From Schmidtea polychroa (lineage: Eukaryota), in NCBI GenBank assembly GCA_044892525.1, contig CM097886.1, positions 19,282,001 through 19,346,000 on the forward strand: a DNA stretch of 64,000 nt, given 5' to 3'. A model generated the notes under the pieces. That model saw only the letters and a list, made by a program, of their open reading frames with translations. It was not told where the DNA came from and made no database searches. The position numbers were made by a program, and so were the translations under genes. This document shows, piece after piece, positions 7,318 to 60,510 of the stretch. Position 1 is the first letter of the stretch; each line of letters opens with the position of its first letter.

Positions 7318-9998
7318 CAGGGCTGTGGAGTCGTATCAAAATGGACCAACCCCGACTCCGACTCCGACCTAGGTCTAACATGTATAAGATCTTTTTTTTT
7401 ATTTAATACTATTAAATTTAGGTTTTTAAAAAATGAGCAAAAAATAAGTTAAATACAAAACAAATCTTTTTTAAAATATTATATTGTTTTATTCTTTGAT
7501 CATAATTTTTTAATTTTTAAAATATATTTCTTAAAAATAAAATTGCTTCAATCAAATCTTCTTTAAGCGATGCACGCAGGTCTGACTTAATTATTTTCAG
7601 AGCAGAGAACAATCTTTCGACACTGACTTGCATTGGCGGTAAAGCGGTTACAATTCTAGCTACATTTTGAATAATTTTTGGGTACACATCGATAGCTTCT
7701 TGGACGTTAAATTTCGATGATCGATCATATTTTTCAACTTCCTCCAAAGCGGTAAAAAACTCATTTTTAAACTTCTGCTCTTCTGTATCTGGTTCCTTTT
7801 CATTATATCGCTTTCGTTTTATAAGATCCAATTGATTTAAATATTTTTCAAAATCCACATCTTCATTTGAACTGGAAGAAACTGATTCCTGACTGGAGGT
7901 GATGTTAAAATGCTCGATCTGTGTTTCACGATTTAGTGCCGGAAAACATTTGATGCGAACGGTGATTTGATAGAGCGTTTCTTTGGCTTTTGCAATATGA
8001 AGGTCATTTAGTAATATTCGGCTCATTGGATCAATATAAATAGCGGCTAATAAAATTTCATTTTGCAAAAGCAGTAGTTCCCTTTTATTCATGGAAGATA
8101 TAATAGCACTGGAAATCGGTTTATCAGTGCGGGACAACTGATAAATTAAGTTTTTCCACTCAAAAAAGAAGGTCCCAGGAGTTATATCTTCAGTTTGTAA
8201 TTTTTTCGTCAGAATATATGGACGTAATAAAATATTTTCTAATCTTGCGGCTTGTTCCCGTTCGGTTTCATTTAGACAAAGATTTGAATTATCCATATCT
8301 GCAAAAATCCTTTTAATTCAAGCAAACGCTTTAAGTGCTTCCCCAACGTGTAGCTTGATCTAAAATCGCACCTTTCCCAGCGCGCCTCTTTAAGATAGCA
8401 TCTATTTTAGGATTTCTCGCTGTGACAGCCATTTGTCTCAACTTCATAGTAATATCTGCTGCATCATGGTTTTTTAAGCCATCTCGTATTGCTAATTGCA
8501 ATGTATGCACAGCGCATCTCATATGTTGAATATAAAATGATTTGGATACTTCTTCACAGAGATCATCCAAGTCTTCATTATTTTGCTCTACTGAGAGTTC
8601 AGTTACATCAAAATTGTCCTCCGTAACCGACACCTCTTCATTTTCCTGATTTAATTTCTCCATAACACTTAGCATATTTGAAGCGTTATCCGTTACTATG
8701 CATAAAATCTGCTCTTTTTTAATTTTAAAGTCCTTTAGAATTTCTTCCAATATATTTTTTAGGTATTCACTTGTGTGATGAGCTTGAGTATCTTTCACTG
8801 CCAAGGTCTGAGTTATAGTTTCTTTGTTATTATTAAAGCGGACATTAATTGCAATATAGTTTACTCTATGCCGAGTACATCCATCCATTTTAATAAAAAC
8901 AAAATTGCCTTCTAATTTTTTTATAAGATAACTTCTTTGTTTTTCAGCCTCATCTAATATTATTTTTCTAATACTTTCTCTTCCTAAAGAAACTTTAAGT
9001 TTACTAGCCATTTCACCATTTAATTCTAAAAATGCTGGCTGTGAAAAAAATGATATCGATATACTGTTTTGAACCACCATTTTTATTAAGGCAGTTTTGA
9101 AGCCTTCTGCTGTCATTGTCACAGTAATTTTATCGCTAATGTAGAATTTGGATAATCTGGGTTCCGATAAGTTTGATGCGGAGGACGATGGTGTAGCGGT
9201 CTTCGGTTTAGTATTTGCCTTATCTACTTCTAGTACTTTCGGATGATAACGCTGCAAATGTCGTTTTAAATTTGATATTCTGCCAGTTGCTAATTGTACT
9301 TTGCACATTTGTTCTTCATCACCTTCTATATGATGACATAGGCATTCATAGAATTTCCCATCTGATGTAATTGAAAAATGCTTAAGTAATGCCGATTTTA
9401 ATTTTTTATCCATGCTGAGGCCTTTGAAAATACTAAATTTTTAACTGCAAATATTAAAAACAATACTATTAAACTCGAAACTTATTAAAGTAATTGCAAA
9501 TAAATAATTTAAACACAACATACGTTTTTAATGCACACAAAAAAAACTTTATTTAACTTCCCTACAACAAAAAATTTCACGATGTAGTTTGGTATTTATT
9601 AATAATTTCAGTTGTTGTCTAGTTTATTTTAAAAATTTTACTAATGCTCTTTAATTAAGATCAGCATGTATTTATACCAAAATTAAACTAGGATAATAAT
9701 AAATTTATATGGGTTTTAGAATTATTTGTAATTTTCTTATATTTACCTGTCTGACAACCGTTTTTTAAAAATATTCTTAGAGATTCTTAGAAAAGCAAAA
9801 GGTAAAAATTGTTTATTAAATAATTCTGAAAAAGATAATTTAATTGCTATACAAAATCATAAAAATGTTGAAAATTCCTCTTAAAATTTTAAATTTTACT
9901 CGGAGTCGGAGTCGCTTCTGTTAACTCGACTCCGACTCCCAAAAATGCACGACTACGCGACTCCGGACTCCGACTCCAGCTCCGACTCCACAGCACTG
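7318..9998 (-). mobile_element. Full-length hAT DNA transposon (hAT-A)
   Basis: TIRs CAGGGCTGTGGAGTCG / CGACTCCACAGCACTG (1 mismatch in 16); perfect 8-bp TSD GTTTATAG (7310-7317, 9999-10006); clustered CCGACT subterminal repeats at both ends. Confidence 0.95.
7517..9413 (-). pseudogene. hAT transposase of hAT-A, disrupted near 8300-8335
   Basis: BED-like C/H finger, MDGCT, VTDNASNM, CAVHTLQL, TRWGS and SVERLFS motifs. Split into 360-aa and 259-aa ORFs by a small deletion/frameshift right after RWGST. Confidence 0.9.
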
Positions 9999-13635: not shown

Positions 13636-15748
13636 CAGTGAAGTCTCTCACATCCGCCAAAAATGGGACTTCGAAAAAACGTGGCGGATATTAGAAAATA
13701 GCGGATATTAGAATCCGAAAAAACATTTTTAAAAATGTTTAGATAACAAAATCGAATCAAAATTCAAAAGTTTATTTAATAATATCAATTGCTTTATTTA
13801 TTCATCTGGGAAAAACCAATCGATTTTATGAATAACGTATTTTATTTTTACAAAAAATGCGTGATTGTTATGAAATAATTATGTACATTTTTATAAAAAT
13901 AAGTGTTAACTGTGCAATATTTATTTTCTAATCACCCAATTTCTTAAATTGCATTTTTCGTCCTTTTTCAAGGCCTTGCTTATTTCATTTAATCCAATAA
14001 CACCATTAACGTCAAATTTTCCTGGTTGATTGAAAAAATCTTTGATTACTTGAAAAGCTTGATAAGCTTCTTTTTTAGTGATATTTTTTGGATTACCAGT
14101 GTCTTTATCTTCCGCTAAATCATCAACCTCATCTTTATCAGCACAGACACTTGTAATATTACCCTCCTCAAAATTGTTTATTTCTTCTAATAAGACATCA
14201 TTTTCATTAAATTCTATTTGAAGAAACTCATCTTCCCCTATAGGATCAGTTACATTAGCTATGGAAATGAACTCATCGTAATTTTCAATATGACAATCCT
14301 CAGCTAAACTTGAATTTTCAATTATCTCTGACATGTACCAATTTGCATGTCTAAAACAATTGATGATACACATTTCGGTAACTTCCTTCCATGAAAAATA
14401 AATAAAAAGTATAGCATCTTTGATGGATAGCTTTTTATAGGCATTAAAAGTGTCCACTCCACTTTCGACTTTTTCTATAATGTCACATAACTTTTTAGAT
14501 AAGAACAGAGTTTTAAAAGATTTAATTATACCTTGATCCAATGGTTGAATTTTAGCAGTTGCATTAGGAGGTAAAAAAATAACCTCTATCGATTTTAATT
14601 CAACGTCTATTCTATGAGCAGGACAATTGTCAATTATCAATAAAACCTTTTTAGATATTTTTCCTAATTTGAAATCCCATTCTAAAAGCCAGTTGTTAAA
14701 AATTTTAGCTGTCATCCAGGATCTGATAGAATGTTTATAATTTACAAAAAATGAAGGATCAAAGTTTTTGAAACAACGAGGTTTCTCAAATCTTCCAATG
14801 ACTAAAGGCTGGTGTTTGTGGGCGCCAGTCATGTTGACACAGAATTGCACTGAAAGTCGATCTTTCAATAATTTAAAACCTGTTCGGATGTTTTTACACA
14901 CTGTTTTCGATGGAATTAATTTATAAAAAAGACCCGTTTCATCTGCATTGTAAACATTTTCTTTACCATATTCACTAATTTTTTTTGAAAGGAAATCGAG
15001 AAAATTGTTATAATCAGATGAAACCTGACCATATGATTCTCCATGTAATCTTCTGAGTTTCAAACTGTGACGTGCTTTAAATTTTCTTAGCCAACCTTTT
15101 GATGCTTTGAATTCTGTTATTTTCAGATCGTTGGCAATTTTTAATGCTTTATTAGTCAATAAATCGTCATTTAAAATTGCACCCACTTTCCCTAATTCAT
15201 TTATCCATTCTGACGCCTGTCAATGGACTCATACTTTAAGATAGGCATTTTATGATTATTTACATATTCTGAATTTATATCTGATAAAAATTTTTTTTCA
15301 TTTCTTTTAATGTCATTAATTGTGCGCCGAGAAATAGTTTTTTTAAACTTGATCGAAAATATCTCTGCAACTTTACTATCAGATATCTGTTTATTCATGT
15401 TTAGATATCGCAGAACATCAATTTTCTCTTTTATCGACAACCTTGTACATTTTCTTTTTGTCATCTTTAGGCTAAAATGAAAAAAATTAATGTAAATAAT
15501 AATAGATGGAAACAACAATGTTAAAATTAAATATTTAAATTTAAATTATGCAATTAACAAGGAAATTAATAATATTATAACAAAAAGAATGAAAATTCCA
15601 TCCATTTAAATTAATTTAAGAAATTTTATGTTAAAAATACGAGAGAAGTGTGGCGATTATTAGAAACAGGTGGATATCAGAATTTTCTCATATAAAATTT
15701 TTTCATGTGGCGGTTATTAGAGCGTGGCGGATACGAGAGACCACACTG
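13636..15748 (-). mobile_element. Full-length pogo/Tigger DNA transposon
   Basis: Imperfect 24-bp TIRs (CAGTGAAGTCTCTCACATCCGCCA vs CAGTGTGGTCTCTCGTATCCGCCA); TA TSDs at 13634-35 and 15749-50. Confidence 0.93.
13921..15464 (-). pseudogene. Tigger transposase (HTH + CENP-B-type HTH + DDE_1) with one frameshift near 15210
   Basis: MTKRKCTRLSIKEKID start at 15464; ASKGWLRKFKARH, YNADETGLFYK, IIDNCPAH and QPLDQGIIKSFK. The frame shifts between YESID and EWINELGK. Confidence 0.9.
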
Positions 15749-19096: not shown

Positions 19097-19883
19097 TGTT
19101 ATAGTATTCGTTGGTTTATATTTGTTTTTTTTTATATTTGATTAATTGATGTATGATTGCGTATGTAATAGAGATTTGAAGATCCCAGCCGAGTCGCCAG
19201 TAAATAAACTGTCTCGGGACAGCTGGGTGAATGTATGTAAGTTACAAAATATTACAATAATCAAATGAGTGTAAAGAACAATACTTTAAAATTACAACTT
19301 CTATTAAAAAAACAATAAAATAGATACGCACTTTATATTGTTGAAGAAGAGATCGATGTTATAAATGTTTCGGATCTCTTCGACTTCTTTATTTCTGTTT
19401 TTCTTTGGTTTCTTATTATGGTAAAACACGGTGTGGTTCTTAAATACCACTTCCAGGTGATTTCGTCAATGTTTATATGCTTCGACCTTTTTTGTGGGAC
19501 TGATTTAATCCTAAATAGTCTGGAAATAGTTGAGGTATGGTATTTGTTGTTTTCTTTTATAGTTGATTTTCAGTTTTCGTCTTTGGTAGATATATAAATC
19601 GTCGGAGAATAATTATTACTTTCAATTTATAAATCGTCGTAGTTTCGTTGTTTCTGAAATCTCCTGTTTTAAATTCTCAAATTAACTTTTAGTTTCTTCA
19701 GCTGTATATTTATTAATCAATTTTATTTGTTTTTTAATTTGTCATTTTACTATAGCGATAATTTACCATTGTAAATTATCGCTATATAGTTTTTTAATCA
19801 AATTTCCCCAACTCTACGGGAACGCTTATGTTCGAAAAAGAAAACGAAGCCTAATTTGGTTATAGTCAAAAATAATCATAACA
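19097..19883 (-). mobile_element. LTR family X, copy A
   Basis: TGTT...AACA ends; shares the GATCCCAGC..GAGTC..CTGTCTCGGGACAGCTGGG block and the GTAAATTATCGCTATATAG block with 33322-34213, 40641-41521 and 59981-60510. Orientation taken from the PBS of copy B. No TSD found. Confidence 0.7.
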
Positions 19884-20197
19884 TCAAAAATACATCAATG
19901 TTTATATGCTTCGTCAATGTTTATATGCTTCGACAAATGTTTATATGCATCGTCAATGTTTATATGCTTCGACCTTTTTTGTGGGACTGATTTAATCCTA
20001 AATAGTCTGGAAATAGTTGAGGTATGGTATATGTTGTTTTCTTTTATAGTTGATTTTCAGTTTTCGTCTTTGGTAGATATATAAATCGCCGGAGAATAAT
20101 TATTACTTTCTGTAGTCAAACCAATTAAATCAATATAAATATTAAATTAATATTTATATTAATAATAACATATTTAAAAACTTACTTATTAATAATA

Positions 20198-20980
20198 ATG
20201 CAAATCAACGTAGAAGACAACATTGGTGTCAGAAGTGTGACTCAAGAAAGTAGTCACATTCAAATGAAAATTCCAACATTTTTCGACAATGTCGCAGTCT
20301 GGTTTCAACAATTGGACGCAGCACTGGAACTGGCCTCAATCAGAAACGAAAAAACCAAATATTTTCACTTGTTAACCAGCTTACCATCTCGCGTTCTCGA
20401 AGAGTACTCGGATTTAATGGATCCACATATCAAGCAGCCATATTCAGCACTTAAAGAAGCAATTATTAATGACTCAAAAGGATCAACAACGGAGGCAGCA
20501 AACAAACTTTTACAGAAACAGGAACTTGGGGATCGGAAACAAGGCCAACTCCTTAGAGAATTAAAAAGAAACTATAAAATAGTGGAACCCAATGGTGACC
20601 CAGAAACGAGCAAAATTCTCAGACATCAGTTCATTAACTCCATGCCAGTTCACATTCAATACCTTCTAATATCGAGCAATGTTGGCATTGATGAGTTGGC
20701 CAACATCGCCAACTTGCACGTAAGCATCAATGATCAGCATATCTCACCGGTGGGAAGTCAAAATATTGCCGGAAACTTCCATCAGCTTGCAATAGAGAAC
20801 CTGCAAGATCAAATCAATGTCATAAGGGCAAACGAAAGCTCTACTCGAAAGGAACGTCATTCGAGTGAAGAAACAATATGTTATTTTCACAGACGATTCG
20901 GAATAAAAGCTAGGAAATGCCAAAAACCGTGTTGCTGGTCTGATTCAGTTAAGTCGGGAAAAGGCCAAGGATCTCGTTAA
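20198..20980 (+). CDS. gag: Gag of Gypsy-A (260 aa)
   Basis: KIPTFF..VAVWFQQLDA N-terminal block and C-terminal CYFHRRFGIKARKCQKPC (CHCC) motif typical of CsRn1-clade Gag. Confidence 0.9.
   Translation: MQINVEDNIGVRSVTQESSHIQMKIPTFFDNVAVWFQQLDAALELASIRNEKTKYFHLLTSLPSRVLEEYSDLMDPHIKQPYSALKEAIINDSKGSTTEAANKLLQKQELGDRKQGQLLRELKRNYKIVEPNGDPETSKILRHQFINSMPVHIQYLLISSNVGIDELANIANLHVSINDQHISPVGSQNIAGNFHQLAIENLQDQINVIRANESSTRKERHSSEETICYFHRRFGIKARKCQKPCCWSDSVKSGKGQGSR
20224..20237 (+). promoter_or_regulatory. Primer binding site, tRNA-Leu type
   Basis: TGGTGTCAGAAGTG, 1 nt after the 5' LTR; complementary to the conserved tRNA-Leu(CAA) 3' end ...CACTTCTGACACCA. Confidence 0.85.
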
Positions 20981-23833
20981 TGTCGACGACAGAGATCCAA
21001 TGCTCAACTCAACAGTCGACAAAGATTAATGCAATCTTCACTGTTCCAGTCCTCTATGACAATAAATATGATTTTCTCATTGATTCTGGGGCAGATGTCA
21101 GCGTTATCCCAACAAAAATATTTAAACCCGATTCCAGAATTGCACCGATCAGACTCATAGCGGCTAACAACTGTAGCATAAAAGTACATGGCTCAAAAGT
21201 TCTACACTTTACGATTGAAGGTCAAAAGCAGCATTTCAAATGGGAATTTATCGTAGCAGATGTTTCTCGCCCAATTCTTGGGGCAGAATTTCTATTATAT
21301 TATGGATTTCTAGTGGATTGCAAAAATGCTAAAATCTTCATAGGAAATACAGCTATCACAAATGTTAATAAAAGAAGCAATTCAGTCAGCTCTGAGCATG
21401 CAATGGCAATCGAAACAACTGGGCCACCAATTGCGCAGTCAGTAAGACGCCTGGGTGGACGCATGCTTGAAGCCGTTCAATCTGAATTCGATACCTTGAT
21501 CAAAAAGGGAATCCTAAGGGAAAGTAAGAGTGACTGGGCGTCACCATTGGTAATAGTTAAGAAGAAAGATGGACCAATACGCCCATGCGGTGACTACAGA
21601 CTCCTGAACTCAGTCACGAAAGTCGACAGATATCTTCTGCCCAGAATAAGCGACATCTTAGATCAACTCGCGGGAAGCAAAATATTTTCAACGATCGACC
21701 TGGAAAAGGCATATCATCAAATCCCAATTGAAGCAAACGACATCCCAAAAACAGCAATAATTACACCTTTTGGACTATACGAATACCTCAAAATGCCTTT
21801 TGGACTGAGGAACGCATCACAAACTTTCCAAAGATTCATGGACAAGCTTCTACGTCCATACAGGATGTTCTCCAGAGCGTACATTGATGACATAATCATT
21901 TTCTCTAAATCGAATGAAGATCATGAAAAACATTTGCAAACAATCGAAAAAGTTCTAAAAGATGCACATTTATCAATAAATAAAGATAAAAGCTGCTTGG
22001 CTAAAAATCAGGTTAACTTTCTTGGATTTCACATTTCAGACTCAGGAATCTCACCCAAAACCGATAAGATTCAAGCAATCACCTCCTGTTCAAGGCCAGA
22101 CGATGTTAAGGCACTGAGACGATTTATTGGAATGGTAACATTCTATCACTGGCTAATTCCGAATTTGGCGGATATAATGGCTCCGTTACATGAACTGACA
22201 TCAAACGGAGCAAAAGACAAACGTAAATATATCTGGAAAGATCAACACTCGCAAGCATTTGAAACGGCAAAGAAAAAACTGCAAGAAATCACTGAAATGA
22301 TCCCTCCAGATTCGCAACGCACATTCATCATATGCACGGATGCATCGGACATTGGAATTGGTGCAAGCCTTAATCACAGAACGGCAGAAGGTAAACTTAC
22401 ACCAATCAGTTTTTTCTCTAGAAAGCTCAACAAAACTGAACAAAAATATTCAACATTTGACGGAGAATTATTAGCTGCCTATTTAGCCATCAAAAATTTC
22501 AAACATCACCTGGATGGCAATACATTCGAATTACTAACCGATCACAAGCCATTGGTATACATAAATACAATGAAAGACCCATCCAATAGACAATGGCGAT
22601 GGATCCAGTTCATAAACGAATTTGATGCAAAGATAATTCACATCAAAGGGAAAGACAACATTGTCGCAGATTTCCTATCAAGACAACCTAATTCAGACAA
22701 CAATACTCTCAATATTGTTGAGACTGTGCCGATGACAAAAAATGAAATAATTAATCAACAAAGACAACAATCATTCGCCCAAACCTTGAAGCCAAATCAC
22801 TCATTTAAAATAAGTATAGATGATGACGGAATCCTAGTGGATATGTCTACTGGCTCCCCTCGAATAATACTGCCAGAACCATTCCAATTCAGGGAATTCC
22901 AGCGGCTTCATAATTTATGCCACCCAGGAGCAAATGGGACAATAAAATTGATATCGTCAAAATATGCGTGGCCCTGTATGCGAGCACAAATTAGGGAGTG
23001 GTGTAGAATGTGTGAAAAGTGTCAAAGAAATAAAGTGACGAGACACATAAAGTCAAGCTTGAAGGAACTTCCAGAAGCAGGAAAATTCAAAGTCATTCAT
23101 ATCGACATTGTCGGCCCACTCCCATTAGTAAATAATAAAAGATTCATGCTTACTATAATTGATAGACACACCTCATGGCCAGAAGCAATTCCTATCTCTG
23201 ATATCACAAGCAGTTTAGTAACCAAAACAGCAGAAAACGAGTGGATAGCTCGATACGGAACCCCCGAGATAATCATCACAGACAATGGTAAGCAATTCAT
23301 TTCATCCACATTTAGAGAATTCTGTGAAAAGCACAACACCATACCATCCCCAATGCAATGGCAAAGTTGAAAGATTTCACAGAACTCTCAAGACGGCTTT
23401 GAGAACACATTCAGAAGATGCAAATAGAAATTGGGCCAATGATCTACCATTGGTATTACTGGGGCTTCGAAATGTCGTTTCAGAAGACAATAATCAATCA
23501 CCAAGCCAAGCGGTCTTTGGAATCAATGGGAAACTACCTGGAGACACTACAATTAAAAGAACTAGAAAACAAAATTGGAAAACATTCTTTCCAGAGGATT
23601 TGAAGACATGCACTCATGTATGGCTTAAAGTGGAAACAAGAACAACTTTAAGGGCTCTGTATGATGGACCATTCCAAATTATTAGTCGAAGCCCAGACCT
23701 CAAAACTTTCGAAATTCAACTTCCGACAAGAAACCTTCGTGTTTCGGTAGACAAGTTAAAACCCGCGTACATTTCAACCAATAACAAATCACTCCTTGAT
23801 CTAGGTGGAGGGCTATGTAGTCAAACCAATTAA
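20980..23833 (+). pseudogene. pol: Pol of Gypsy-A (PR-RT-RNaseH-IN), frameshifted in the integrase core near 23335
   Basis: LIDSGADVS, WASPLV, CGDYRLLN, YIDDII, TDASDIGIG, VADFLSR, H-H-C-C finger, HIDIVGPLP, TDNGKQF. The segment TPYHPQCNGKVERFHRTLK...YDGPF lies in a different frame. Confidence 0.93.
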
Positions 23834-24338
23834 ATCAATATAAATATTAAATTAATATTTATATTAATAATAGCATATTTAAAAACTTTGTTTTAATATG
23901 TTATTAATTTGATAAAAATAGAATTTGAAAAAGTCGTCTTACTTATTAATAATAATGCAAATCAACGTAGAAGACAACACTTTCAATTTATAAATCGTCG
24001 TAGTTTCGTTGTTTCTGAAATCTCCTGTTTTAAATTCTCAAATTAACTTTTAGTTTCTTCAGCTGTATATTTATTAATCAATTTTATTTGTTTTTTAATT
24101 TGTCATTTTACTATAGCGATAATTTACCATTGTAAATTATCGCTATATAGTTTTTTAATCAAATTTCCACAACTCTACGGGAACGCTTATGTTCGAAAAA
24201 GAAAACGAAGCCTAATTTGGTTATAGTCAAAAATAACCATAACATCAAAAATACAACAATCTACTACAATTATAATAATAATAAGTATAAATAATTACTA
24301 TTAATAAAAAATACTATATTAAGTAATTTATAAAATAA

Positions 24339-27617: not shown

Positions 27618-30600
27618 TAGTGGGCTGCCGAACTTTGATTTGAACTTCGATTCGGACCAAAGTTCAAACACTTCGGACTTCGGCAATAGACCCTGTACGA
27701 TCCAAATAGTGAAATTTTGCTTGAGCGATAATAAATTATTATTGTTCCGTGATTATTTACATTAAAATTAATGGCGACACGCAAACAATGAAAGTAAATA
27801 AAATCTTAGTTGTTGTTCATTTTTCTTTACTATCGATTTTCCTTTCTACGGCTATGTCATACGAACACTGACAAGTCTAGCCTAGCCGTGGCTGTGTCGC
27901 TGTGTACACAATAGCCGTTCATGTTCATGCATCTCTATTCTCTACACTATAGCAGCCCTATACGTCAATCTCCGACTATTCTTAGCATAATCTCGATTGA
28001 TTCGAGCCACGATATCGTGGGGCAGGCGCTTGAATAGGCATGGCTTGCGAGGCTGAGGCTACTGTAATACCACAATCAATTACCGATCGCAATCTAATAG
28101 GCCTAATAATAATTTTACTCTGTCCGAAATTTATTGCTTGGGCACTATTAGACTTGACTACTGTCGAGAGAAATACCACATAATCTACACATTTAAATTA
28201 ATGTTGAGCACATTTAAATTTATTATGTCATCTATCGTCTCTGTATGTCGACTCTCCAATCTTATTGCATGCCTGATGGAAGCAGCACAAGATGCCACGC
28301 GCGTGTATGCAGTTCAACCGAGTGCATATGTCAATGTCATGCACGATGATGTTCGTATACCGTACCTATCGACTTTATCGACAATAATACTTATTATAAA
28401 ATTATATAGAAATAATTGTGTCATTTTTCTGTCATAAAATTGTGTGTCATAAATGAATGATTTATTCATTAGGTAAAATATTAGACTGAGCAGAACTGCC
28501 AGTTGAGCATCCGATTCACTTTCCACATCATCACATGCGAAAATCTCCATAGCTCCATACCCCTCCCCAGTGTACATAATATATATAAAAGCCCATCAAA
28601 TTTGAAATCGAAAATTTTAAATATATTTCTTCAACAAAATTAATAAATTAGATTTAAATATTAAAAATAATTGAAATTAAATAAATATGGCTAATGCTAT
28701 GAGAAGTAAAATTTGGAATTTCTTTGAAATCAACGCTGTGGATGAATCTTTTGCTAACTGTGGGACATGTAGAATGAAAATGAAACGTGGTGGCAAGGAT
28801 CCAAGATCATACGGAACAACAACATTAATCAACCACCTACGTTCTAAACATCCGGACAAGTACAAAGAATATTCACAGGCGTGTGATTCTGCAAAGAAAC
28901 GACAAGCTGAAGAGGAAGAAAATCAACTCAATGCCGCAGCTAAGAAGCCAAAGCTACAAACTCTGGATGCATGTATTGAACGTACACGTCCATTTGAATC
29001 GGGCCATCCTCGTCAGATCCTCATAACGAAACTAATTGGTGAGATGATAGCCTTGGATAGTCAGCCATTTTTGATTGTCAGTGACGAAGGATTTCGACGT
29101 GTTCTGCATCAATTGGTGCCCAGATACGTCATTCCAGACGAGACTTATTTCTCAAGAACAATCATACCGGACATGTTTGCTGCAGTGAAGTCGAAAGTCA
29201 AGAATCTCATCGGAGATGCTAAACTTCTGTGCTTCACGAGTGATGTGTGGACAACCACCAACAGCCTAAATGGATTCCTCTCTTTGACAGCACACTGGAT
29301 CGACAACAATTGGGAACGCAAATTTGTGGTGCTGGCACTTCGAGGAATCAACGGACATCACACCGGTAAGGTGATTGGAGATACCATATTGGAATTGTTG
29401 AATGAATGGGACATTGATGCAGGCAGACGTGGAACCTTCGTTCGCGATAACGGGTCAAGCATGATGAAGGCCGCTAGTGTTGCAGGCTTATCAGATCTAG
29501 GCTGCTACATACACACGATTCAGTTAGTGGTGGGTGCAGGATTAAAGAAGACGCAAAAGGCTGTCATTGATGCAGTTGCAGCTTCCCGCAACATTGTAAC
29601 CCACTTCCGGCATTCACCATTAGCCAATGATCGACTGGAAAAGATTCAAAAATCTTTTCAGCCGGATGCTGCCGGAAACTCATATCCCGTCCACCGCCTG
29701 ATACAAGATGTACAGACAAGGTGGAACTCCACGTTTTATATGTTGGAAGGTTTGATCGAACAGAGAAAAGCAATAGCTCTCTACATCCAAGACAACGAAG
29801 TCACCAATCTGACAAACAATCAGGGGAACTTAATCGAAAGGGTCGTGTCGACATTGCGTCCATTTGAGGAGGAAACGCGGAATGCTAGTTTGTCAACTGC
29901 AACAAGCGGAATGATTATTCCAAGTGTGCGTGTACTTCAAGCAGTTTTGACGAGACCAGCAAAGGAGGGTGACGACCTCTGCATTCAAACAATGCGTGCT
30001 GAAATGCTTGCGAATCTCAGCCGCAGGTATGCTAACGTTGAAAATAATAAGTTGTGCGTGTTATCTACTGCTTTGGATCCAGTGTACAAGCTTCGTCTCT
30101 TTAACGCGGAAACTGCTGCCACTGCAAAACAATGGCTTCTGGATGCAATGAATGCTGTAACGTCGACGGACAACTCGCGTGATGAAGTGCCAGCAGACCC
30201 AACACCTTCCACATCATCTTCATCAGCCACATCTGCTTTGGATAGCTACTACGACGACATGCTTGGAGCTACACAATCCAACTCTACAGATTCCGGTAAT
30301 CTCCAACAACAGCTCGATGCATATTTAACGGAAGCGTGCAACCAACGACACTCGCCTCCAAAAGATCCAATAGAATATTGGAAATCAAGGCAATACACCT
30401 ATCCTCAACTTGCACTGGTCGCCAAACAATTATGTGCTTCTCCTCCTTCCAGCGTGGATAGTGAAAGAACCTTCAGTTTGGCTGGTCTTATATGCGATGA
30501 CCGTCGATCAAACTTAACACCAGCCAAAACTGAGATGCTTCTATTTTTAATGAAAAATCTCGATGTGGTCCGTTTTGACTACTAATAAACTAATGAATTC

Positions 30601-33217: not shown

Positions 33218-33306
33218 AACAACATAAAAAATTACAAACTGCCAACGAGCACAAGAGAGTTGAGAAGATTTCTAGGAATGGTAAACTTTTACCATTCTTA
33301 CATCCC
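33218..33306 (+). pseudogene. Gypsy RT thumb/connection fragment
   Basis: IKNYKLPTSTRELRRFLGMVNFYHSYIP. Confidence 0.75.
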
Positions 33307-33319
33307 ACTTCTGACACCA
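33302..33319 (-). promoter_or_regulatory. 18-nt tRNA-Leu primer binding site of LTR family X
   Basis: Minus strand TGGTGTCAGAAGTGGGAT, 2 nt from the LTR end; full complement of the last 18 nt of a typical tRNA-Leu(CAA). Confidence 0.85.
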
Positions 33320-33321
33320 GT

Positions 33322-34213
33322 TGTTATGTTGTGGTTTACGAGAGTATATGCGTACTACTAATAACTAAAGTATAATTTGTAATTGAATGCTTGTATATAA
33401 TTATATGTATATATTATATTTATATTTGTAGATGCATCTATGTTAAGGAGATTTGAAGATCCCAGCTTACTCACCAGTAAATAAACTGTCTCGGGACAGC
33501 TGGGGTGAAGGTGTTTAATGTGAAATACAGACCAATTAAAAATAAGGATAAAAAAATATAACTATCAATTAATTTAATTTACAACTTACCAAAAAATGAA
33601 ATAGGGATCGGATTGTTTAAGATTTTCGGCTTTCGAATTATCTTTTCCACAGCNNNNNNNNNNNNNNNNNNNNNNNNNNNNNNNNNNNNNNNNNNNNNNN
33701 NNNNNNNNNNNNNNNNNNNNNNNNNNNNNNNNNNNNNNNNNNNNNNNNNNNNNNNNNNNNNNNNNNNNNNNNNNNNNNNNNNNNNNNNNNNNNNNNNNNN
33801 NNNNNNNNNNNNNNNNNNNNGATATAGATTCGATTAGAATAGTATTCCTCGAATGGATCAGGAATTTGCTAGAAGAGGGAAACTTTATTTTCTTTTAGTT
33901 TTATAGCTTCTGATTTTCTTCTTCCCAGTGGTTTGATTTTCTATTGTTTTGAAGTTCAGGAGAATGGAAAATTTCGGTAATTTAGTTTCTAATAAATTTG
34001 GTTTTGATTTGGTTTTGCTTCTTTGACCAATTTTAATTTTTTAACCTTGCTTTAATTTTTACTTCGATTTTTTTTCGATTTTATTTTTTCTTATTTACTA
34101 TAGTAAATTATCGCTATATAGTTTTTTTGAAATTTCCTTTCCGGGACGCTGCAGGGACGGTAATAAATAAAAAACACAAAACCTAATTTGAATATTGTTT
34201 ACAATTATTTACA
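33322..34213 (-). mobile_element. LTR family X, copy B (contains an assembly gap)
   Basis: TGTT...TACA ends, adjacent PBS, and both conserved family blocks (33448-33505, 34097-34123). Confidence 0.8.
33654..33820. other. Assembly gap (167 N)
   Basis: Run of N. Confidence 1.
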
Positions 34214-34750
34214 GCAATCTACTACACTGATTGAGTGCTTGGCGAATAATTTCACTTTTCCATATTCCTTGGGTTGAAAATCCACCAACAGCTGTAATTT
34301 TTACCAAAATTTCTGCCATTGATTGCTTTCTATTAAAGAATGATATTCGGTCAAGTCGGTTCTTAGATTTTGTTGAAAGTTTTTCAACGTTTCTTGTGTT
34401 GGCGTCGCCACTCGGTCGACACTAGATGGAATTAAATGCACCATTATGGCGAAACATGATGGAACAGGTGAGCCATGCCTGAAGACTACTCTTTCATCAT
34501 GATCCGACTTACTTCTACTTACTGACTAAAAATCCTAAAATCTAAAATAGTCTATTTTTTGAAAATTAAAACAAAATTTGTTTCTCAGTAAAAGGGGAAA
34601 AAGAGAATTCTCTAACAATGACAAAATAAAAATTCAATATTAAAGTCAAATGTTAGGTTTAATAAAATTACAAATCAAATAATTTTACATGTAACTATCA
34701 TTAAATGTCTTATTATGTTATGCAATGTGATACATTTAAAAATTAAATTA

Positions 34751-37198: not shown

Positions 37199-39221
37199 CA
37201 GTGGCGTATCTAGGGTTCACGGCGCCCGGGGCAAAACTTAAAATTGCGCCCCTCTCCACGTGAATTTTTTCTTTTCCTTATTATTGGTATATTATTTTTG
37301 CACTAAAGTGACATTTCTTTTTTAAGAAAAAAAAATTATTATTTAAAAAAAATCAAAAATTTTCACTCTTTAAAATTGATTTGCAGCAGTTTTAAAAAAA
37401 ATTAATTTTATTTTGCAACAAGTTAGTTTTAAACTTTATTTATTGTAATAATTTACAAACAAATTTTTCGTGCTTTAACACTTGCGAACTTGTCAATGAC
37501 ATCATCAAAGTTAATTTTGTTCACAGTGTTTTTCTCAATACTTAATAATGCCAAATTATTTAAACGTTCTTCACTCATTGTTGCTCGAAGATATGACAAA
37601 ATTAATTTTAATTTGCTAAAGGAACGCTCGCATGTTGAAACAGAAACACCAATTGTCAAAAGAATTTGCAATGAAATTCTTAAATTTGGGAAAACATCTT
37701 CACCATAAGATATTAAAAATTTTAAAAGATCTATAGGTGATTTTGGAATTTCATCTTTTCGAGCATTAAGAAGCATTTTACAGTCAGTAACTTCATTGCA
37801 TAGTTCGTTTTCATCAATATCTGAATTGTAAAATTTTCCCAAATTTGAACATTTTTCTTTTAATTTAGCAGGATCATGGCAATTTAGAAAATTTTCAGTG
37901 TCAAGGAAATATCCAAAATTTTCGTTCAATGAATTAAGGCGAGTAAATCGAGTTTTTAATTCTTGAATTAATCAATCAACTGAGCATTTCAACACACGAT
38001 CTAACTCTTGTTCAGCAGTCAAACCAGAATCAGTCATTTTTTCACCTAATCTAATTTTTATACGTCGCACTCTTTTCTTTATTTCAACGCCCCATTCAAA
38101 ACACTTTTTTTTACCTGCTTCAATTGATTGAATGCATAGATCTTCAAGAAATTGCTGCATATGTATGCTTAATCCTTGTAAATCATCGGAGGCATCTTTA
38201 AAATTAATTTTTGGATCTTGCATTCGTTTTTGTACACGATCAATTTTCTCGAGAACGTGATGCCAAAAATTTATCAAAACCAGAAAATTAAAATTCAATA
38301 TATTTTGCAATAAATTGTATGATTCGCTTCTTGTGTCAGATGTTTGATTGAAATCATCAGAAAGATCTTCAATTAATTTCACAAGATTATCGATTCCAAT
38401 AAAAATTGCTTTTACAGCTTCTGCTCGTGCACTCCATCGTGTTGTTGATTCACGTTTTACAGTCAAAGGAACGATTGGTTGATCTTGAAAAAAATAAATA
38501 AATTTGTTCAATTACACCAAAAAAAGTTAGCATTATGGGATTAGTTTGAACAGAATGTAATCCTGCAAGATTTAAACTATGATTATCGCAGTTAATAAAC
38601 ACTGCGCGAGGGTTCAATTTGGTAATTCTTTGTTGCAATCCAGAAACATGACCAGCCATAACTGCCGCATTATCATAACATTGCGATCGACAGTCCGAGA
38701 GTTGTAATCCATCGGTTTGTAATAATTTGAGTATAGTATTTTTCAGAGCTTCGGCATCTTTTTCAGCTAGCTCAATAAATCCCAGAAATGATTCCTTAAT
38801 TTCCACTGTTTTTTTATCAAAATCTATTTCAACGTGACGAATAACTTCTGAAAATTGTTCACGATGTTGTAAATCTGGAGTAGAATCAAATATCATGCCA
38901 AAGTATTTGCTTTTTTAATATTTTCAATCAAAACATTTCGAACTATTGAAGCTAAAAGGTGAATAAACTCATTTTGTATGCCTGGTGATAAATAAGATGT
39001 TGTTCCTGGATGTAAACGAGAATGTTCCATGTGACTTGCCAAAAGTGGATCATATTGCGCAATCAATTGTAAGAGACCCAGAAAATTACCTGGATTGCCT
39101 TCTGTATTCAACAAATTTTCATTATAACCACGTAATGCTAAATTATGAAATGCTAAGAATTTTATGCATGAAAGAAATCTTTTTAAAATTTCTCTCCATC
39201 GATCTTTTTCCAACAATATTT
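37199..39221 (-). mobile_element. 5'-deleted hAT element (hAT-C; DUF4371 plus dimerisation domain), frameshifted
   Basis: TIR CAGTGGCGTATCTAG at 37199; motifs LALRG, IFDSTPD, QCYDNAAVM, CDNHSLNL, TTRWSAR and CERSFSKLKLI spread over four ORFs; other end missing. Confidence 0.9.
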
Positions 39222-40994
39222 GAACGTAGCCTACGTTTTCTACATTGTTTTGATCATTTACATGATTAGAATTTCTATTGTATCGATAGAAATTCCCATG
39301 GTTTTGATTCGAAGTTCTTTGCAATCTCATCTCGTACTGATTCTGTTTTTGAAAACACTGAAAACTTAAATGACCTGCTTTACCACAACACGAACATCGA
39401 ATATTTGGGCATTCCCGACGAATATGACTAATTTCACGGAATGCTTAACATTGCATTTTTGAATATTGATCTGAACTTCGATTTTGATACCAGTTTCTAT
39501 TTTGATGTCTTTCACTGAAATTTATATTGACATTTCTTTGATAATCTGCTCGTCCTTCTTGGAATTGATTTCTTTGCAATTTTGAATATTCATTTTTGTT
39601 ATCACTTTGATTTCGCTGATTTCCATAATTATTTCTTTTCTCATTATTATTGTATCGACCGTTTTTCACAATTGATTTCGTATGAGGTATTTCCAACGGC
39701 TAAAACTTGTTGTATCTTCATCCATTTTCTGTAAAATTCTTTTAATATATTTATTTGCCATTGGATCTTTTTGTACTGGCTCTTCATCATTTCTTAAATC
39801 TTCTTTCGATAATTTACTTTCAGCAAATCTTCCGTAATTTCATATATTTTTATTTCACGCTTTTCTTCTTCATTATCAAGGCAATGTTTTAAGAAGAACG
39901 TTGTCAAATTTGACATTGTTAGCTTGTGCTTCAAGATTTTCTGAACACCTTTCTCAATCTTACTAATGTAAGTTTCTGCATCATCTTCTTTTTATCGATA
40001 ATTTAGCAACTTTTCCAAATCCTTAGCTAAATCCAACTTGTCTTCGAATGCTAATCTAAGCCTTTTCGCATAATCTTCTTTATCTGGAATTTTGTCATAT
40101 TTGTTGCGGCAATTTTCGTCCAAATAAGATTGAACAATTATATTTTTTTAATATTGTCTAGCTGAATAATTGAAAAGTATGATTCAATCTTCTCAATAAT
40201 TTCTTCCAAATCATATCCAATTGAATAGATTTTCGGTTGTGGGAGAATCCGTAATAATTCCTGGGTTGAAAACGTGGTCATGTAAAGAATAATTGATAAA
40301 TTCCAAAACATTTTATTTAAGAAATTGTCGACAGCAACACAATCAGCAATAGCTTTTTGGGAAATAATAATCAGTGACATAATTTGAGTACCCATACAAT
40401 CAAAAATAATAAATCACACATGCAGGTATTACATAATATAGGGTAAAGGTTAGGGAAATAAAATATCCCATTATAATTACATCACAGTAATAAAGGCAAT
40501 AATCATTAATCATTATAGATATAATATAGGTAATAATAATAATATCGATAATCCTAGAAATTCCTAAGTTATGGATGATAGCGAAAATTGTGATTATGCT
40601 ACTGCAAACAATGATAATAAATGATAATTATAATGATAATTGTTGTAAAGTTCGGTGGTTTATTCTTATCTAATTGAATTATAGTATTTATGTAACGTAT
40701 GGTTGCGTGTGTAATTGGAATGTAATTAGTATTTGTATGACGAGTGATACTATGTTATAAGAAGTTTGATGAACCCGATAGAGTCACCATTAAAAATTGT
40801 GAGGGGACAATCGGGTGCGTGTATGTATGAGTGCTTACAAAACTCAGATAAAAATGATTAATAACCAACAATATAATTAACAAACGTTTTATTAAATAAT
40901 AAAATTTATTCGACCTTTAATTTTCTTTTGTCCTGATTGATCGTTTGGTTGTTGGAGTTTACAAATGGTTTTATCTTGATTGTTGACTTTTTAT

Positions 40995-41348
40995 CTGAAA
41001 GTAGACTTTGGATATATCTTTTTATTCTTGTTATGATTGAATTGAATTAAATGGAAAACTGAAAGTAGACTTTCGAGATATCTTTATATTCTTGTTATGA
41101 TTGAATTGAATTAAATGTAAAACTGAAAGTTGACCTTTTAGATATCTTTATATTCTTGTTATGATTGAATTGAATTAAATGTAAAACTGAAAGTTGACCT
41201 TTTAGATATCTTTATATTCTTGTTATGATTGAATTGAATTAAATGGATAATTGAAAGTTGACTTCCGAAATTTCTTTATATTCTTGTTATGATTGAATTG
41301 AATTAAATGGATAATTGAAAGTAGAATTTGGGGATATCTTTATATTCT
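40995..41348. repeat. 64-bp minisatellite, about 5.5 copies, inside LTR X copy C
   Basis: Unit starts at 40995, 41059, 41123, 41187, 41251 and 41315 (CTGAAAGTAGAC...TTGTTATGATTGAATTGAATTAAATG...). Confidence 0.95.
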
Positions 41349-41632
41349 CTCTTAATTTTTTTTCGATTTGTCATTTTTGCTATAGTAAATTATCGCTATA
41401 TAGTTTTTTAAGACTTTTTATTTCAGGGCGTTGAGGGCGCCAAAACAGGAGTAAAAATAAAACTTAATCGAAGTTATGTTTTGGCTCATAATTATGATTA
41501 AAAATGTAAAATTCTACTACAATAATAAATAATAGAAATAGTAATTATAGAATTTACGAAAATAATAATAAGCAGGAAAATTATATCAATGAGCATAGCC
41601 ATAATAGTAGTAGTAAGGTAATACTACTACTA

Positions 41633-59980: not shown

Positions 59981-60510
59981 TGTAATAATATTGTAATGTA
60001 TTGTTATACTATATTTTTTTCGTGAGTTATTACAATTTGTAACGAAAAAAAATTAATAAAACTATATAGCCATAGTAAATTATCGCTATAGAAAAAATGC
60101 AAAAACAAAAAAATAAAATAAATAAATCGATAAATTAAAGTAAGAAGCCAGAAATATTAAATTATCAGAAACTTCAAGAGAAAATTTTACGGCTGAAAAC
60201 CACAAGAGAATTTCGAGAAAAATCAAAGAATATTTAATTCAACTTATCTATTTGGGACTTTTGTCGTGCATTGTACTATTGGAATATTGTAAGCGATTTC
60301 TTTAGTTTGAGTTAATTAAGCAATTTATTCTTCTTATTGTTATTTATTTTCACATTATATATCAAACAAACAAGCTCCCCAACTGTCCCGAGGCAGCCAT
60401 TTTTACAGGCGACTCGGTTGGGCTCAAAAAATTTCTAACAATAACAAGTTAACAAAGTAACTAGTTTATAAGTTAATAAGAACATATTATAGATAAGATC
60501 ATACGTAACA
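59981..60510 (+). mobile_element. LTR family X, copy D (opposite orientation, shorter)
   Basis: Both family blocks are present in reverse relative to copies A-C (60061-60091, 60378-60422); starts TGTAATAAT like the reverse complement of copy B's end; right boundary approximate. Confidence 0.65.

Follow-up and report, generated by a model that had tools for sequence, protein, structure and literature searches.

The window analyzed here, a 64,000-nt stretch of the Schmidtea polychroa genome (contig CM097886.1), carries four copies of a 45-base stem-loop motif that is real, far above chance, and that occurs in thousands of copies elsewhere. Judged from its pattern of sequence change, the motif is under selection as a structured cis-element within long terminal repeats (LTRs) that can otherwise hardly be aligned, and it is hosted by a Ty3/Gypsy LTR retrotransposon that uses tRNA-Leu as its primer. 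Its surroundings place it very likely in U5 of the transcribed leader, and it is likely an undescribed, selected U5 RNA motif in a known kind of element. The function we favor, at a probability of about 0.42, is that of a U5 leader domain that would bind a protein and serve packaging and the start of reverse transcription.

To count the motif we searched 781 Mb in four large chromosomes with the core pattern TGTCCCNNNACA-N6-13-GGNGACTC, which gave 2,177 exact matches genome-wide (1118 + 1059), against 0 + 0 for the reversed pattern. The sequence-only reading of the window had proposed gathering genomic copies and building a covariance model, and with both in hand the motif was found genome-wide: the model made seven matches, six of them at E < 1e-4, across 60 evenly spaced 10-kb stretches, which implies several thousand copies in the genome, and no match in the two 10-kb flanks of the window. 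The same reading had recognized no known motif, in agreement with an Rfam covariance-model search of the window and four loci that returned no relevant match (only chance matches elsewhere in the sequences), and no description of the motif was found in the open-licence literature. A pattern scan of viral contigs yielded one match, without stem support, and a scan of metagenomes at least 119 matches that look like chance; among the matches listed, five of the six stem pairs were present in 10 of 119 and the full flank context in 0. The motif is also present, with different flanks, on a contig filed under a second species label (depth 5), which is a weak hint only. At locus L167 (G000:C1:135.55 Mb) a 3' LTR is mirrored on itself across an (AT)n run, so that two motif copies stand in inverted orientation 190 bp apart. 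A young repeat family (L191-L210) with a look-alike 3' half was left out, scoring E of about 1 against the profile; it is very young (40 of 40 scored copies are 98-100% identical) and carries, for example at L194:1230-1640, a G+C-rich block of ~370 nt between an AATAAA-bearing repeat end and an ORF that looks like a structured leader.

All four window copies lie exactly where the sequence-only reading had put them and have the arm sequences it gave. Its description of their LTRs as poorly alignable stands apart from the pair A and B, which agree at 86% over 80 nt, and of the LTR ends that it took to abut the primer binding site (PBS), only that of copy B does so in the window, C and D residing in solo LTRs with 5-bp target duplications. 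Two details that it had reported, the GGTGAGTAAG of copy B and the sixth pair in ACCCGA/TCGGGT of copy C, turned out to be private decay, each differing in the relatives of that copy. LTR A is interrupted by a 487-bp tandem duplication and by a nested compact Gypsy element, and in LTR C the inferred R region contains a 64-bp tandem array. The nested Gypsy (window 20111-23979) has LTRs of ~112 nt, the target duplication CTTTC and a PBS for tRNA-Leu as in the motif-bearing lineage, but lacks the motif, and its RT region has 46% protein identity to that lineage. Remnants of hAT and Tc5/pogo-type DNA transposases (7517-9440, 13921-15219, 28681-30585 and 37453-39444) occupy much of the remaining window.

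Table 1. Motif copies and associated LTR features in the window (positions counted from its first letter; scores from the covariance model).
Feature	Positions	Strand	Remarks
Motif copy A	19184..19227	-	closing stem, invariant core, U-rich linker; 72.3 bits
Conserved CA-rich flanks of motif copy A	19176-19234		
Motif copy B	33461..33504	-	3' core decayed; 66.7 bits
Motif copy C	40773..40816	-	67.2 bits
Motif copy D	60378..60422	+	66.6 bits
LTR with copy A	19097..24268	-	start approximate
5' LTR with copy B	33322..34226	-	start at either 34203 or 34226; N-masked in part
Solo LTR with copy C	40641..41521	-	target duplication ATTAT
Solo LTR with copy D	59992..60510	+	TG...CA ends; target duplication AATAT
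18-nt primer binding site	33302..33319	-	complements tRNA-Leu(CAA) 3' end; belongs to LTR B
AATAAA poly(A) signal upstream of copy C	40888..40893	-	
Conserved TATA-like box CTATATAG, LTR A	19775..19791	-	inferred promoter
TATA-like box, LTR B	34107..34123	-	
TATA-like box, LTR C	41389..41405	-	
TATA-like box, LTR D	60060..60076	+	

The host is assigned to Ty3/Gypsy by its LTR pairs, target duplication, polypurine tract and the order RT-RNase H-integrase. In intact copies the two TG...CA LTRs are identical or nearly so, and a 5-bp target duplication, a PBS and a polypurine tract accompany them (one such LTR pair, with all three accompanying features, is identical at 558/558 positions); these copies encode gag followed by PR-RT-RH-IN. 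Copies terminate in ...ACA, and some then continue into TGGTGTCAGAAG and gag-pol. The PBS matches the genome's intron-bearing tRNA-Leu(CAA), mostly over 12 nt and in two cases over 18 nt. The lineage is very active, all 150 of the 150 RT matches scored having an identity of at least 98%, and the motif is retained in elements whose RT DNA is just 65-70% identical (5 of the 16 loci compared); no RT relatives were found in viral contigs. A single LTR subfamily can be found with either of two leader types, and a single leader type with different LTRs, which suggests that LTR and leader types are exchanged modularly among subfamilies. This shuffling in turn suggests that subfamilies are packaged together and exchange parts, which a common signal would permit.

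Several observations concern the leaders and a tRNA array. Loci L234 and L260 share an LTR subfamily and differ in leader type, and the motifs of L396 and L400 are similar though their RTs are only 70% identical. Behind the PBS (L234:1612-1800 and others) the leader has covarying hairpins of its own, one with arms ATACTT/AAGTAT or ATAGTT/AACTAT and another with TGGCT/AGCCA or TGGCC/GGCCA enclosing the loop GAACACAGTA; these are a candidate packaging or dimer domain, one leader type could fold as an H-type pseudoknot, and contigs under the second species label also cover this domain. A tandem tRNA array at G000:C2:73.95-74.09 Mb (L438-L447) has a unit of ~733 bp containing tRNA-Gly, tRNA-Gln and an intron-bearing tRNA-Leu, with 2,272 pattern matches genome-wide.

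To examine covariation, 205 copies with the core pattern were sorted by their flanks alone into 82 groups, the flanks not clustering at 82% identity, and an alignment of 44 rows was assembled from the four window copies and 40 hand-picked members of 40 of the 82 groups; gathering by the core pattern and picking by hand favor intact cores, so core conservation is inflated in this sample. The 5-bp closing stem (P1) is paired in 99.5% of its cells in the 44-row alignment, with double changes at pairs 1, 4 and 5. In the covariation test 95.9% of 484 cells were paired and four pairs had double changes, against 24-47% for slid controls. The claim that double substitutions in P1 preserve pairing, made from four copies, was thus borne out at three covarying positions across 82 LTR groups, and the covariation that it had predicted for a large alignment was found, its score being reached by none of 500 shuffles. 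An unbiased listing of 2,086 matches gives the same picture: counted by hand over its first 100, Watson-Crick pairing holds at both pair 4 and pair 5 in 97 (GA/TC in 64, AG/CT in 29 and AA/TT in 4), the remaining three of that hundred comprising two wobbles and one mismatch. Pair 1 is flipped from C-G to G-C in one subfamily, and a loose sixth stem pair is paired in 60 of the 82 groups. The compensatory changes may represent just three to four independent events, inherited by many copies.

The placement in U5 depends on the position of the motif downstream of AATAAA and within a stretch depleted of upstream AUGs. All six intact LTRs have a TATA-like box 109-122 nt from their start. In 31 LTRs the observed/expected ratio of ATG is 0.93 before this box and 0.15-0.17 from 30 nt past it to the LTR end; eight whole leaders contain 11 ATGs against 92 expected, a ninth leader with no match to the box being omitted. 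An AATAAA lies 55-115 nt upstream of the core in 51 of 82 groups, compared with 9.1 (maximum 18) in shuffles; of the 24 LTRs with a PBS, 16 have it at -79 to -102, and a U/GU-rich tract follows it. This conserved hexamer stands about 65-110 nt from the motif (5-95%: 67-108 nt). In the window the exact AATAAA is absent at the corresponding place upstream of copies A, B and D. From motif to PBS there are 49-182 nt, and from motif to TATA-like box 245-760 nt without fixed spacing. We infer that transcription would start just past the TATA-like box, ~110-120 nt into the LTR, and that R would span some hundreds of bases up to AATAAA; the contigs covered revealed no transcript start, end or poly(A) joint. 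The sequence-only reading had called the site likely R/U5, which the upstream AATAAA and the loss of ATG after the TATA-like box narrow to very likely U5. A role as splice donor or acceptor was rejected, the required GT or AG not being conserved. The TATA-like box itself sits inside a palindrome of ~38 bp, often perfect (window 19751-19795; L234:1160-1200), which is preceded by a short, subfamily-specific G+C-rich word.

Inside the closing stem the core words TGTCCC, ACA, GG and GACTC are nearly invariant, whereas variation is free at the three loop positions, at the base that follows GG and in a U-rich linker of 7-13 nt. The base between GG and GAC is T in 49, A in 31 and C in 2 of the 82 groups, as expected of a bulge. 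The sequence-only reading had drawn an inner hairpin, P2, here; it is left unproven, since the inner TGT/ACA shows no compensatory change. The third T of TGT is altered in 29 copies genome-wide and compensated in none, and the A of ACA is altered in 30, with ordinary transition bias. The outer P2 pair (C-G versus T-A) is intact in only 48 of 82 groups, and in 60 of 82 that outer base has a partner on the P1 side. RNAalifold and partition folding both choose a bulged helix, GUC-CC with GG-N-GAC, over P2: in partition folding, 11 of 16 LTRs give it a probability of 0.64 or more and 13 of 16 give the closing stem 0.68 or more, whereas 15 of 16 give the 3-bp P2 hairpin no more than 0.16. A- and D-type LTRs support the bulged helix only weakly (0.01-0.25 in L017, L073 and L385). 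The core is thus predicted to fold around one free bulged base, and the predicted helix would close a loop of NNN-ACA and the U-rich run; because the core does not covary, this fold is only a prediction, and it offers no explanation for the invariant ACA. An alternative model is a pseudoknot in which a UGU/ACA hairpin pairs its loop CC with GG; 96% of its cells are pairable, yet neither P3 nor CC/GG has a double change. A different pseudoknot from the loop to the 3' side, CCGAG/CTCGG, was rejected, as it fits A- and D-type copies only and is lost in C-type. The wobble asymmetry once read as a marker of the sense strand disappeared in the larger sample, with 22 sense and 34 antisense G-U pairs in 1025 cells, and folding z-scores in eight copies are modest on both strands (sense -1.0 to -3.3, other strand -0.9 to -2.7). 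No stable pairing between motif and leader was predicted, with fewer than 2 bp in 16 of 16 LTRs.

The motif looks like a protein-binding domain by virtue of its covarying outer stem, invariant core and CA-rich single strands. If it lies in U5, the mature genomic RNA would carry one copy, near the 5' end and before the PBS, and the closing stem with its near-invariant core would form a protein-bound domain of the genomic RNA leader. The binding partner would most likely be the element's Gag, and the bound motif would mark genomic RNA for packaging and for the start of reverse transcription. This reading is favored by the U5 site, the stem-core form and the shuffling of LTRs and leaders; retroviral U5 structures serve both packaging and priming, as described in relevant sections of PMC12789967 and PMC1865047. 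The earlier suggestion of a selected cis-acting RNA element therefore survives as to selection, structure and residence in LTRs, but not as to the ribozyme that it had allowed for, the tests for HDV-like features having failed at P1, L3 and J4/2.

The main rival reading, which we consider rather unlikely, is that the motif acts in nascent RNA as a downstream element of the LTR poly(A) site; it would either promote 3'-end cleavage or transcript termination in the 3' LTR or, together with leader-bound factors, help to silence the strong 5'-LTR poly(A) signal. Spacing suits this role better, since the motif comes after the U/GU-rich tract and its spacing from AATAAA is fairly constant (67-108 nt, 5-95%), tighter than that from the PBS (49-182 nt). 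An AATAAA within a long R also means that the 5' signal needs suppression (as set out in part of PMC12789967), and the U-rich linker is able to pair over 4-8 bp with the hexamer region. That pairing, however, is predicted at 0.0 in 14 of 14 LTRs with a hexamer found, and linkers scored no better with their own poly(A) context than with permuted ones (cognate 5.48, permuted 5.68, p = 0.97, n = 49). A U5 element is, moreover, transcribed in both LTRs and so cannot distinguish them alone. As to suppression by a poly(A) hairpin or U1, we found neither a stem-held hexamer nor a conserved 5' splice-site word, and the GT of a possible U1 site is absent in 33 of 82 groups. Pairing with free arms of tRNA-Leu, in the manner of a primer activation signal that compensates for the mostly 12-nt PBS, seems improbable. 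The U5 position would fit, HIV-1 provides a precedent in its PAS, which lies in U5, pairs with the T-arm and is hidden within a stem (PMC1865047, in part), and split primer sites are described for Drosophila gypsy and yeast Ty3 in sections of PMC1635307. Some subfamilies do have 7-nt complements of the variable arm or D arm, but many lack them, and the duplex energy with tRNA-Leu(CAA) beats shuffles at p < 0.05 in just 2 of 26 groups (range 0.02-0.65). Separately from the motif, L234:1640-1655 and related leaders have CACGC and CATTCG 15-25 nt past the 12-nt PBS, complementing the T-arm and variable arm of tRNA-Leu in order, a possible split primer site; a shuffle test of the whole leader-tRNA duplex was mostly not significant (3-51 of 100).

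Conservation of the core without covariation, a minus strand that folds about equally well and wobbles without sense-strand bias would all suit a DNA-level element (factor sites or a hairpin in minus-strand DNA) in place of an RNA fold. We nevertheless attach little credence to it: a covarying 5-bp inverted repeat with variable spacing is unlike double-stranded factor sites, the TATA-like box is 245-760 nt away without fixed spacing, and the central base of the core word, which we take to be AP-1-like, varies freely. A translation element in the long leader (600-1000 nt) before gag is very unlikely, despite the position of the motif within the inferred 5' UTR and the IRESs of the Drosophila gypsy leader (PMC1635307, in part); the gag start lies some 250-380 nt away from the motif, and the strong loss of upstream AUGs points to ordinary scanning, for which no IRES is needed. 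Slighter still is the chance of a self-cleaving RNA of HDV-like topology, in which the U-rich strand would take some A-rich stretch as its partner to form P1. The succession of closing stem, hairpin of 3 bp, CC in the loop, linker, GG and short joiner resembles the HDV-like P2-P3-L3-P1'-P1.1-J4/2. In HDV-like ribozymes the C of J4/2 is followed by a conserved A, and L3 is conserved. The motif has a near-invariant C four bases ahead of the closing stem (kept in 77 of 78 groups), but its joiner is C-U-C rather than C-N-A, its last three loop bases are variable and its linker ranges from 7 to 13 nt. No conserved P1 partner exists upstream or downstream (p 0.83-0.97), the 3-bp hairpin has the low probability given above, no Rfam ribozyme matched up to E of 5 or 10, and cleavage in the leader would uncap genomic RNA. 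Plant retrozyme LTRs do carry ribozymes (PMC4918200, in part); membership in the HDV-like class was rejected for our motif on P1 (G1, abutting P1.1), L3 and J4/2. Equally remote is a new catalytic or switch RNA, a P1-less HDV-like pseudoknot capturing AAUAAA or the poly(A) tail by its U-rich strand; were it true, the motif would mask or cut the LTR poly(A) signal and decide which LTR ends the transcript.

A Gag-bound packaging or priming domain, if that is all the motif is, would be an expected kind of element. It is nonetheless a short, sharply defined, thousand-copy candidate signal in a very active lineage, and few cis-acting RNA signals have been mapped in animal Ty3/Gypsy elements beyond the yeast and Drosophila cases. 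A 60-nt RNA makes two questions testable, namely what marks the RNA for packaging and how the strong 5'-LTR poly(A) signal is skipped, and the motif also serves as a sensitive tag for solo LTRs of its lineage.

Among known systems, minimal HDV-like (theta) ribozymes lack P4 and have their catalytic C first in J4/2, according to the portion of bioRxiv 10.1101/2023.06.13.544163 used here; the motif resembles them in the helix order of the pseudoknot model, the missing P4 and the conserved C of the last joiner, but has no P1/G1 cleavage-site helix, differs in loop and joiner sequence and does not lie beside tRNA genes. Like plant retrozymes (as presented in parts of PMC4918200 and PMC6765202), it is a structured RNA inside a Ty3/Gypsy-type LTR, although retrozymes carry hammerheads and are non-autonomous, whereas here there is no hammerhead match and gag-pol is encoded. 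Echinococcus ta-TRIM and lennie are likewise flatworm LTR elements with a short tRNA-Leu PBS; in the sections of PMC4558846 that describe them their LTRs are short, a canonical AATAAA is lacking and nothing like the motif is reported. The HIV-1 poly(A) hairpin and U1 suppression (PMC12789967, in part) offer a parallel in that the poly(A) signal belongs to R, so that both LTRs have it, and a structured element lies close by; here, however, the stem does not include the hexamer, and the donor-like GT lacks conservation. A structured, conserved U5 element ahead of the PBS also recalls the HIV-1 PAS/PBS stem and the packaging pairings of retroviral U5 described in portions of PMC1865047 and PMC12789967; unlike these, the motif has no significant tRNA complementarity or predicted leader pairing, and its distance to the PBS is variable (49-182 nt). 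The layout is the usual one of animal Metaviridae, whose LTRs, in the relevant part of PMC3601003, comprise SIRs, TATA, AATAAA and a GT-rich tract: our elements share the TG...CA ends, TATA-like box, AATAAA and U/GU-rich tract, then U5, and their 5' LTR end fits the Mag C word TGTNATRT. What distinguishes them from animal Metaviridae as described there is the conserved, covarying stem-loop in U5.
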